Positions 55,903-57,255 of a stretch of DNA of 64,000 bases are shown piece by piece. The translations under genes were made by a program, and so were the position numbers. The notes under the pieces were generated by a model. The model saw only the letters and a program-made list of their open reading frames with translations, searched no databases and was not told the origin of the DNA. Position 1 is the stretch's first letter. Every line of letters starts with the position of its first letter. This stretch comes from an uncultured Candidatus Saccharibacteria bacterium (GTDB lineage: Bacteria; Patescibacteriota; Saccharimonadia; Saccharimonadales; Saccharimonadaceae): NCBI GenBank assembly GCA_964429055.1, contig CAYSAK010000003.1:5962-69961 (forward strand), given 5' to 3'.

Positions 55903-57255
55903 ATGTTTGTTGATATCGCAAGAGTAAGTTTAAAGGCCGGTAAAGGCGGTGATGGTGCCGTTTCTTTTCGCCGGGAAATCTATATTCCAAAAGGTGGCCC
56001 GGATGGTGGTGACGGTGGTAAGGGTGGCGATATCATTTTTAAAGCCGATAAAGATACAAATACGTTGATTGATTTTCGTTTTACGCCAATTCTCACGGCC
56101 GAAGATGGCAAAAATGGCTCCGGTACGCGTTCGGCTGGTCGCTCTGGTAAAGATTTGATTGTAGAAGTGCCAATTGGCACCTGTGTAAAGAGAGACGGCG
56201 AGATAATTGCGGATTTGACACACGATGGTGAGGAAGCGATTATTGCTAAAGGTGGCGATGGTGGTTTTGGTAACGCGCATTTTAAATCTAGTACGCGCCA
56301 AGCGCCAATTATTGCCGAGGTAGGTGAACCTGGTGAAGAGTTTGAGGCTGAGCTTGAATTAAAATCCATGGCCGATGTTGGTTTAGTGGGCCTTCCGAAC
56401 GCTGGTAAATCAACTTTCCTCTCTGTGGTGTCAAATGCCAAACCGGAAATTGCCGATTATCCGTTTACTACGATTACGCCGAATCTTGGTGTGGCCACTG
56501 TTGATGGTAAGGATTTATTGATTGCGGATATTCCAGGGTTGATTGAGGGTGCTTCTGAGGGTAAAGGCTTGGGGCACGATTTTCTTCGCCACGTTGATCG
56601 TACCGCAGTGCTTTTACATCTGGTGGATGTTTATAATGACGATGCCGGTGAGGCTTATAAAACTATCCGTCACGAACTAGAAAAGTATTCCGACCTAGCT
56701 TCTCGTCCGGAAATCGTCGCACTCACTAAATGCGAAGGCGTTGACGAAGATATCCTTAAGATGCAGATGTCTTCTATTCTCGCGAAAAATCCCGATGCTA
56801 AAATCTACGCTATTTCCAGCTCCGCTCACCAAGGACTTACTGAATTACTTCGTGCATTAAAGAGCGAACATGAGAGCCACCCTCGTTCTCGGAACGCTCC
56901 CTCGGGCCCGTCGTCACGGGCCTCGGTCGCTCCGAATTTGACCCGTCGTCAAATATGCTCCTCGAACGAAGATGGCTCTCATGTCAATGATTTGCCTGTT
57001 ATTTCTCTAAGCGACAAGGCTTTAAAGGACGCTTGGAAGGTCGAGAAAACCGAAGATGGTAAGTTTGTTGTGACTGGTGAGAAAATTGAGAAGTTTGCAC
57101 GTCGTACCGATATGAACAATTACGCATCGGTTAATCGTTTAAGAGATATCATGAAAAAACTAGGCATCAGGGCAGAGCTTACTACCCAAGGTGCTACTCC
57201 TGAATCAATTATCAGTATTGCTGGAAAAGAATTTACCCTAGTTGAAGACTGGTAA
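55903..57255 (+). CDS. obg: GTPase Obg carrying a 39-codon palindromic-element insert between the G domain and the C-terminal OCT domain
   Basis: 450 aa. Obg fold [25 protein letters not shown]1 [10 protein letters not shown]3 DIPGLIEGA, and an OCT-like C-terminus ([17 protein letters not shown]...). Confidence 0.95.
56868..56984. repeat. GC-rich palindromic element, in-frame copy in obg (117 nt, more divergent)
   Basis: Arms ACATGAGAGCCACCCTCGTTC / GAACGAAGATGGCTCTCATGT. Inner hairpin GGGCCC-GTCGTCAC-GGGCC, then GGTCGCTCCGAA and a second small hairpin TTTGAC-ccgtc-GTCAAA. It has the same plus-strand orientation as the other copies although obg is on the opposite strand to trmD and uvrC. Confidence 0.8.

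Follow-up and report, generated by a model that had tools for sequence, protein, structure and literature searches.

A GC-rich palindrome inserted in the obg gene of a Saccharibacterium belongs to a dispersed family of probably selfish elements with conserved cores and locus-specific arms

The obg gene of an uncultured Candidatus Saccharibacteria bacterium carries, within its reading frame, a GC-rich palindrome of 117 nt. It is located in a stretch of 64,000 nt from contig CAYSAK010000003.1 (assembly GCA_964429055.1, positions 5,962 to 69,961), hereafter referred to as the window. The window has a GC content of 42%, and it matches the ruminant-gut Saccharibacteria metagenome-assembled genome (MAG) GCA_017453925.1 (JAFTEA01) and many near-identical metagenome contigs. 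We found that the obg palindrome is a full-length, canonical member of the second subfamily, designated type D, of a repeat family whose first subfamily, type 1, is present in three further copies in the window. Very probably, the family constitutes a non-coding, GC-rich palindromic repeat with a three-way-junction fold that is dispersed in gut and rumen Saccharibacteria (Ca. Nanosyncoccus and related organisms), which have small genomes. We also consider it likely to be a selfish element of the kind represented by the Rickettsia palindromic elements (RPEs). Its core is conserved, while the surrounding arms are specific for each locus and covary, a combination for which we found no described counterpart.

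Reading the obg block base by base confirmed the sequence, arms, and inner hairpins given in the first-pass annotation, which had been made from the DNA sequence alone (Table 1). The arms ACATGAGAGCCACCCTCGTTC and GAACGAAGATGGCTCTCATGT are complementary except at two positions, and none of 100 shuffled sequences produced any match. A repeat finder traced the arms to 26 nt at 85% complementarity. As positions 56867 and 56985 are unpaired, the ends of the palindrome listed in Table 1 are exact. Hairpin 1 is followed by GGTCGCTCCGAA at 56925-56936, and the motif CCCGTCGTCA occurs twice in the block (56907-56916 and 56942-56951). The predicted folding energy was −58.5 kcal/mol for the plus strand (z = −6.4 versus shuffles) and −73.5 kcal/mol for the minus strand (z = −10.0). 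The insert comprises 39 codons in frame, corresponding to approximately residues 323-360 of Obg. It is thus situated between the G domain, which according to Pfam extends up to residue 318, and the OCT domain (DUF1967, residues 379-444), as had been proposed initially. In an AlphaFold model of Obg, which is of poor quality (mean predicted local distance difference test score of 48.6, shallow alignment), residues 327-373 have no predicted structure.

Table 1. Features of the obg palindrome and of the related copies in the window
Feature	Position	Strand	Remarks
Whole obg palindrome	56868-56984	+	Type-D element with locus-specific arms; in frame in obg
Left arm	56868-56888	+	Outer part CATGAGAGCC locus-specific; inner part CACCCTCGTT shared with the orthologous obg copy in L148
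Right arm	56964-56984	+	Inverted complement of the left arm; two C.A mismatches on + (G.U on −)
Conserved type-D core	56885-56969	+	Full-length match to model R2 (11 copies from other genes)
Hairpin 1, GGGCCC / loop GTCGTCAC / GGGCC	56904-56922	+	Loop motif shared with type 1 (GTCGCCAC)
Hairpin 2, TTTGAC-CCGTC-GTCAAA	56937-56953	+	Hallmark of the subfamily
Host gene obg, 450 aa	55903-57255	+	Insert between G domain and OCT domain
Type-1 copy in trmD (gene on −)	54477-54590	+	Core 54494-54574; R1 95.8 bits, E = 2.3e-19
Type-1 copy in uvrC (gene on −)	31334-31450	+	Core 31353-31434; R1 84.4 bits, E = 7.1e-17
Degenerate type-1 copy, intergenic	23743-23839	+	R1 27.0 bits, E = 3e-4

A scan for GC islands, together with the repeat finder, revealed the three other GC-rich palindromes of the window. 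All four copies fold as a Y shape. Read on the plus strand, GCGTCC is followed in the trmD, uvrC, and intergenic copies by hairpin 1 with the loop GTCGCCAC, GGCGCT, hairpin 2, and GCTCCGRA, in this order; the outer stems of these copies are unrelated in sequence. A further match at 7638-7647 (CCGTCGTTAC) lies in ordinary coding sequence and was discarded as a chance match. We then searched a collection containing one genome per species (185,579 species) with a sequence pattern and obtained approximately 75 loci. They came from Ca. Nanosyncoccus alces and from MAGs of Saccharibacteria/Ca. Nanosyncoccus whose hosts were sheep, goat, yak, roe deer, and water buffalo. The matches in these genomes all measured 47-48 nt, and matches of other lengths were chance matches in high-GC genomes. 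The covariance model R1 was built from 76 aligned type-1 cores, none of which came from the window. The consensus fold of these cores has 21 pairs, 11 of which stay paired through changes on both sides; pair 51:71, for example, is C-G in 44 sequences and U-A in 32. In the window, R1 matched exactly four copies, all on the plus strand, with the best unrelated match reaching 7.9 bits. The obg copy scored 22.0 bits (E = 0.0036), on the plus strand only.

Among the weaker R1 matches, one in a tsaD-like gene (L106:1329-1407; L-numbers denote loci from other genomes or metagenomes used for comparison) has the same core as the obg block. Scanning metagenomes with a type-D pattern yielded at least 10 distinct loci that all have arms of their own, including tsaD-like genes, trmD (L151), and the N-terminal region of obg (L131). 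A second covariance model, R2, was derived from 11 type-D copies, none of them in obg. It matched the core of the obg palindrome on the plus strand with 108.9 bits (E = 2.5e-24) over model positions 1-85 of 85, which identifies the obg copy as a canonical type-D element. R2 also recognized the uvrC copy on the plus strand (19.0 bits, E = 0.02). These cross-scores are weaker but reciprocal and on the same strand, and they support a link between type D and type 1, with a modest margin. Accordingly, the proposed homology of the obg block with those in trmD and uvrC, and their common orientation on the plus strand, held up.

The type-D consensus reads TCTCGGAACGCTCCCTCG..CCCGTCGTCACGGG..TCGGTCGCTCCG-NN-hairpin 2-TATGCTCCTCGAA, and both hairpin loops normally contain CCCGTCG. 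The stem of hairpin 2 varies by locus (TTTGR/YCAAA, ATCGCC/GGCGAT, TTGAAG/CTTCAA); that of the obg copy covaries with the orthologs L130 and L142 (TTTGG..CCAAA) and with other loci (ATCGCC..GGCGAT). Because a second CCCGTCG loop is normal in type D, what the first-pass annotation had taken for an internal duplication in a more divergent copy is a hallmark of the subfamily and not a sign of decay. Types 1 and D are built alike, with a closing stem, a hairpin 1 whose loop reads GTCG(C/T)CAC, a second hairpin, and arms that are specific for each locus. The core of approximately 81-85 nt comprises the short closing stem, hairpin 1, the second hairpin, and a 3' segment that reads GCTCCGRA or GCTCCTCGAA. 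The obg, trmD, and tsaD sites are occupied by both types, in different species. Additional variants were seen alongside these two. A third subfamily with the core CTCGGGACGGGTCGCTCGC.CCCGTCGTCACGGGGCTCGCGCC.TCATTCTCGGTCGTAACCTCCGAA and locus-specific arms occurs at L106:6316-6394, L099:3629-3707, L128:1580-1658, and, in antisense, in the obg linker of L149. Further divergent subfamilies with R1 scores of 16-33 bits and CCCGTYGTYRC in both hairpin loops are found at L057:4282-4363, L101:5844-5925, L126:4308-4395, L118:7319-7399, L116:2087-2166, L038:5526-5602, L059:304-389, and L080:4079-4155.

The family is apparently undescribed. At the gathering threshold, Rfam reported two tRNAs only for the whole window, and at permissive E-values the best hits for the obg and trmD elements did not exceed 14 bits (E > 3). 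A scan of IMG/VR with the type-1 pattern gave no indication of carriage by phages or plasmids; it returned two chance matches on high-GC contigs. A full-text literature search retrieved no account of such elements in Saccharibacteria, Patescibacteria, or Nanosyncoccus.

The properties of the family were then evaluated with a census of 98 non-redundant copies (84 of type 1 and 14 of type D) from Saccharibacteria/Ca. Nanosyncoccus genomes and metagenomes. In every copy, the core is enclosed by an inverted repeat of 12-25 nt. The arms are approximately 92% paired and have a host-like GC content of 0.37-0.39, compared with 65-73% in the cores. They are never shared between non-orthologous loci, even though identical cores can occur at different loci of one genome (L066/L071; L084). 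Hence, the outer arms are unique to each locus and, contrary to the initial description, not part of the repeated element. Where sites are orthologous, the arms of different species are homologous, and their changes are coordinated. Six orthologous copies at a methyltransferase site display changes on both sides in 22 of 45 pairs, many of them in the arms, and the core is inverted in two of the six. Two simple origins of the arms were rejected. They were not copied from nearby DNA, as their longest exact matches in the respective 8-kb locus equal those of control segments. Nor do they travel with the core, as pairs of similar arms always share the outer flanks too and hence represent orthologous sites. 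Transition mismatches in the arms of the 98 copies are asymmetric: 62 would form G.U on the minus strand of the core and 35 on the plus strand (data points that are not independent), which amounts to an excess of G-to-A on the plus strand of the core. This bias is weak, and we did not use it as evidence.

Most copies reside in genes. As many as 86 of the 98 lie wholly inside stop-free open reading frames (ORFs) of at least 150 codons, 46 in sense and 40 in antisense orientation. The host genes include obg, trmD, uvrC, tsaD, lepA, and genes for rluB-like, aminoacyl-tRNA synthetase-like, and methyltransferase proteins. In the window, obg is encoded on the plus strand, and uvrC (31225-32571) and trmD (54148-54963) are encoded on the minus strand, so that obg indeed reads the strand of the element opposite to that read in the other two genes. 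Over all copies, host genes read five of the six frames of type 1 and three of the six frames of type D. On average, 4.4 of 6 frames are open per type-1 core (4.0 in shuffles) and 4.5 of 6 per type-D core (3.1 in shuffles). The openness of the shuffled sequences indicates that the open frames are mostly a by-product of GC richness. The first-pass annotation had described the element as open in several frames on both strands. This applies to the family, largely as a GC effect, but not to the obg palindrome itself, which is stop-free in two of six frames, one per strand. The remaining 12 copies are intergenic, many of them between convergent genes and flanked by an A-run and a T-run; at most one of them (L053) has a stop inside a continuous frame. 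In that case, L053:4147-4264 holds a stop that separates two long ORFs in the same frame, representing either the C-terminus and stop of the upstream gene or a gene split in two. The intergenic copy of the window occupies a 121-nt gap between the convergent ORF 20930-23728 (plus strand) and tsf (23850-24440, minus strand). With an A-run before it and a T-rich run after it, this copy may act as a bidirectional terminator.

These observations suggest how the copies could persist inside housekeeping genes, in frame, stop-free, and in either orientation: the GC richness would keep most frames open, and selection would then purge copies that shift the frame or carry a stop. Most probably, the inserts are translated and give rise to low-complexity loops, with much Gly, Pro, Arg, Ser, and Ala, at tolerant positions, which in Obg would be the linker between the G domain and the OCT domain. 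Alternatively, the insert might never appear in the protein, being cut out of the mRNA via the long stem or bypassed by ribosomes. The very stable stem would bring the two junctions together, and there are precedents for bypassing in the T4 gene 60 gap and the mitochondrial 'byp' elements. All 86 genic copies, however, are stop-free and in the host frame, although most should break the frame if they were removed or bypassed. We therefore regard removal or bypass as very improbable and prefer translation of the insert.

The obg linker differs widely among relatives. The 120 closest Obg homologs are 77-98% identical and 425-489 aa long, and the variation in length is located entirely at the linker that carries the insert. 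Relatives at 79-83% identity have an Obg of 425-426 aa with a short, AT-rich linker, and the same type of linker is found in L007 (426 aa). Other relatives contain a type-1 core, in sense in L008 and in antisense in L009. An orthologous type-D copy is present in L148, whose Obg is 84% identical; it shares the inner arm with the window copy and differs in the outer arms and the hairpin-2 stem. L130 likewise has a type-D copy at this position. In L149 (Obg 90% identical), the linker carries the third subfamily in antisense orientation with unrelated arms, and in L150 an antisense type-D copy has a second small hairpin nested in its loop. The comparison of Obg lengths suggested in the first-pass annotation thus revealed relatives without the insert. 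Sets of 120 homologs each of TrmD and UvrC showed the same pattern of empty alleles, several subfamilies, both orientations, and short scars. This distribution supports the view that the obg insert is an insertion in a domain linker and not an ancestral linker. The opposite reading, in which a fast-evolving ancestral linker became a GC-rich palindrome by chance and is unrelated to the other blocks, could invoke the hypervariability of the Obg linker in length and sequence. It is practically untenable: the block scores 108.9 bits with a model built from copies in unrelated genes, the relatives with 79-83% identity have a short AT-rich linker, and an Obg that is 90% identical carries another subfamily in the opposite orientation. 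On the basis of the homolog lengths, the subfamily swap in L149, and the R2 score, we rejected it.

Filled and empty alleles of trmD and uvrC allowed us to compare the insertion sites directly. In trmD, the flanks in the window are 92-95% identical on both sides to those of the empty allele L154, which reads GCA AGG GAG TTT GCA AAA GAC GCC CAT. The filled allele has 102 nt in place of the 9 nt AAAGACGCC. When the native left flank GGGAGTTTGCA is turned into its inverted complement, the new right end, TGCGAACTCCC, agrees with it at 10 of 11 positions; the agreement with the native right flank is only 6 of 11. In uvrC, the native right flank CATTTGGAATT encodes H-L-E-L, and its inverted complement is exactly the left arm AATTCCAAATG. 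Where the filled allele has this arm, the empty allele L157 reads ATACCAGGCA, which agrees with the arm at only 5 of 11 positions. Thus, at both loci, an inverted copy of one native flank has been written over the other flank, and the length has changed little. The prediction that a perfect AATTCC|GGAATT target had pre-existed in uvrC failed, as the empty L157 reads ATACCAGGCAAAGGCCATTTAGAATTA. The start of trmD itself is annotated inconsistently. The ORF finder gave 271 aa from an upstream ATG, near-identical contigs were called with 271, 246, or 245 aa, and TrmD homologs begin with MIKFTIITLF, which corresponds to the 246-aa version.

Alleles that have lost the core were also observed. In trmD, L155 retains the arms and GGGG-TAA-CCCC without a core, and L156 retains the left arm only. 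Including these two, scar alleles consisting of arms with or without the GGGG/CCCC closing stem were seen in TrmD (L155, L156, P0203, P0211, P0223, P0232) and UvrC (P0280, P0315). The host protein is lengthened by 3-8 residues in these alleles, from which hypervariable loops seem to develop.

The overwriting of flanks fits replication template switching, a process reported to create and maintain stems, to homogenize and expand the arms of inverted repeats, to invert spacers, and to generate multi-base 'compensatory' changes in a single event (PMC8794818, PMC8604942; likewise PMC13100816). According to this proposal, template switching at the hairpin would build and maintain the arms by copying one host flank, inverted, over the other. 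The same process could re-homogenize the arms and invert the core. Copies would also be lost by deletion that leaves scars, so that occupied sites would become hypervariable. Arm homogenization, arm expansion, spacer inversion, and one-event multi-base changes as described in the template-switch literature all have a match in our data. The difference is that the process described there is a general source of mutations in inverted repeats of the ordinary kind, whereas here it would act systematically on every copy of one family, with a conserved GC-rich core as the spacer.

A different order of events is conceivable, in which the cores insert into the loop or centre of existing hairpins or (quasi-)palindromes and the arms are mostly the pre-existing target. 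Several observations point in this direction. Intergenic copies sit in stems with terminator-like A- and T-runs, often between convergent genes; secondary elements are located exactly at the GTCG of the hairpin-1 loop (L040, L104, L150, L080, L090); the native trmD site is already a weak quasi-palindrome (GGGAGT...ACGCCC); and positions are reused across species with unrelated inner arms, as in uvrC of the window and L111. Yet the empty trmD, uvrC, and rluB alleles lack long arms, one native flank is replaced and not kept in trmD and uvrC, and coding sequence would not be expected to contain stems of 15-25 bp. As an account of how the cores arrive, insertion into existing hairpins is rather unlikely but deserves serious consideration. 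As to the nested elements themselves, mini-hairpins are found exactly at the GTCG of the hairpin-1 loop at L040:5993-6107, at L104:3831-3944, in the obg linker of L150, and in L080 and L090, where the left half of hairpin 1 is displaced. One nested insert of 34 nt, ACC..GGTCGTCCGCGTCCCARGGGGCG, lies between GTCG and GTCK, and another of 58 nt contains the hairpin GAAAATCGAG..CTCGATTTTC. The hairpin-1 loop resembles an insertion target or a nicking site.

More speculatively, the arms might serve as stable landing pads (hairpins or, in double-stranded DNA, cruciforms) at which a dedicated system inserts, exchanges, and inverts cores, for instance a nuclease or recombinase that recognizes the GTCG(C/T)CAC loop. 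This would fit the presence of cores in opposite orientations between the same arms (methyltransferase, lepA, and trmD sites), of identical cores at different old sites in one genome (L066, L071), and of elements nested exactly at the GTCG of the loop, as well as the subfamily swap by which the obg linkers differ although the Obg proteins share 90% identity. We consider such a system doubtful. If it were real, it would amount to cassette-like exchange inside essential genes, with protein linkers being rewritten continually.

The covariation might also reflect selection on the fold of a functional structured RNA, either cis-regulatory or a small RNA. Hairpin 1, hairpin 2, pair 51:71, and the arms covary strongly, and the folding z-scores range from −4 to −10. 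Against this, the two orientations relative to the host gene are equally frequent (46:40), 88% of the copies are inside ORFs, no Rfam family matches, and scars and core-less alleles are tolerated. Moreover, the host mRNA strand has fewer, not more, wobble-compatible mismatches than the other strand (31 vs. 50, from data points that are not independent), and selection on mRNA structure was rejected for this reason. A structured RNA is consequently improbable, and we retain an RPE-like selfish element as the likely interpretation.

Several points weigh against this interpretation. We found no transposase, target-site duplication, or donor/recipient pair; with respect to direct duplications, none was present in the two filled/empty comparisons (trmD and uvrC), and no systematic search was made. 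We infer mobility from the dispersal of the copies alone, and translation of the inserts from the preservation of the frame. No near-identical empty obg allele was found, so that the status of this copy as an insertion rests on more distant relatives. The arms are explained only in part, as they match neither native flank at rluB (L009 and L085 compared with the empty L001 and L008) and in trmD of L151. The observed covariation is also expected from selection on a functional hairpin. Finally, the maximum R1 score in 307 kb of unrelated high-GC loci was 19.4 bits, little below the 22 bits of the obg copy; these control loci had been chosen for a match to the seed pattern, which inflates their scores.

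Among known systems, the closest behavioural match is found in the RPEs, a likeness that the first-pass annotation had pointed out and that is strengthened by the 86 of 98 copies in ORFs with the frame kept and by the 39 codons of the obg copy. According to PMC10969869 and PMC3733652, which summarize Ogata et al. (2000), RPEs are short (~100-150 bp), dispersed, palindromic, non-coding sequences that occur in frame in many unrelated housekeeping genes of a reduced genome, add a peptide where the protein fold allows it, and have no associated transposase. The present family resembles them in size, dispersal, palindromic and non-coding nature, and in-frame position in housekeeping genes of a reduced genome; no associated transposase was found here either, and the inserts would likewise add a peptide, probably where the fold allows it. 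The likeness is one of behaviour, and the host phylum here is Patescibacteria/Saccharibacteria. In addition, both orientations and up to five of six frames are used here, and 88% of the sampled copies lie in genes, a far higher share than for RPE-1 of R. conorii, of which reportedly 19 of 44 copies are located in genes. To our knowledge, a conserved core with locus-specific, covarying inverted arms has not been described for RPEs.

Another relevant group is the CGTC-tagged superfamily of repetitive extragenic palindromic (REP) sequences, with RPE-4 and RPE-6 among its members (Di Nocera et al., 2013; PMC3733652). Like the present family, these are small GC-rich stem-loops with no dedicated transposase known. 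Type 1 has an invariant GCGTC at the 5' foot of hairpin 1, and CGTC occurs inside the loops (CCGTCGTC). Intragenic CGTC-tagged REPs favour replication and repair genes, and one copy here is in uvrC. Some REP dimers are embedded in longer palindromes, which have a conserved consensus there and are unique per locus here (PMC3733652). The CGTC-tagged REP unit, however, measures 20-40 bp and is defined by a CGTC tag that stays unpaired, a stem of 8-9 bp starting with A/T pairs, a loop of 4-5 nt, and a CCA tail (PMC3733652). In our elements, GCGC is the predicted pairing partner of the GCGTC, the GC-rich stem has 10-15 bp, there is no CCA tail, and the unit is a three-way junction of 81-85 nt; type D has CGCTC instead of the GCGTC of type 1.

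[quoted passage not shown] As described in these excerpts, MITEs have terminal inverted repeats that are conserved between copies, direct target-site duplications, and a related insertion sequence. In the present family, only the closing stem of approximately 6-7 bp is conserved, and the long inverted repeats differ at every locus. A partner insertion sequence was not seen, although no systematic search was made. A further parallel comes from yeast mitochondria, whose compact, AT-rich genomes are invaded, coding regions included, by GC-rich palindromic mini-elements (the GC clusters and 'byp' elements). The ribosome skips 'byp' elements, and no frame is required; here, in contrast, frame and openness are always kept.

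If our interpretation is correct, Saccharibacteria, which are ultra-small and host-dependent, appear to tolerate, and perhaps to evolve through, dozens of selfish hairpin inserts in essential genes (obg, trmD, uvrC, tsaD, lepA, and aminoacyl-tRNA synthetase genes). This would be a second, independent, and more extreme case of the phenomenon known from Rickettsia. The elements would explain hypervariable linkers and length differences in conserved marker proteins, which is relevant to annotation, phylogenomic alignments, and the assessment of MAG quality. The covarying arms suggest that long perfect stems can arise and persist without obvious selection, and the template-switch model of stem evolution is directly testable here on hundreds of independent loci. 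Specialists may be most surprised by the covarying locus-specific arms, by how little the copies are depleted from genes, and by the fact that different subfamilies, in different orientations, occupy the same sites.

Other repeats were noticed in the window. Four tandem repeats of 252-255 nt with 67-80% identity (22064-23080) lie in a 932-aa ORF (20930-23728) and correspond to a protein module of approximately 85 aa. A direct repeat of 300 nt with 84% identity occurs at 45505-45804 and 47755-48054, the copies being 2250 nt apart, and a run of 12-nt CCTGAGCCTGAA repeats at 48088-48201 would encode a Pro-Glu repeat. A promoter-like motif consisting of TTGAC, a T-rich spacer, and TGTG.TATAAT (extended −10) is present at 14008, 25222(−), 26007, 32577(−), 40631(−), 44154, 50440, 51524(−), and 55824(−); one of these copies is located just upstream of obg.

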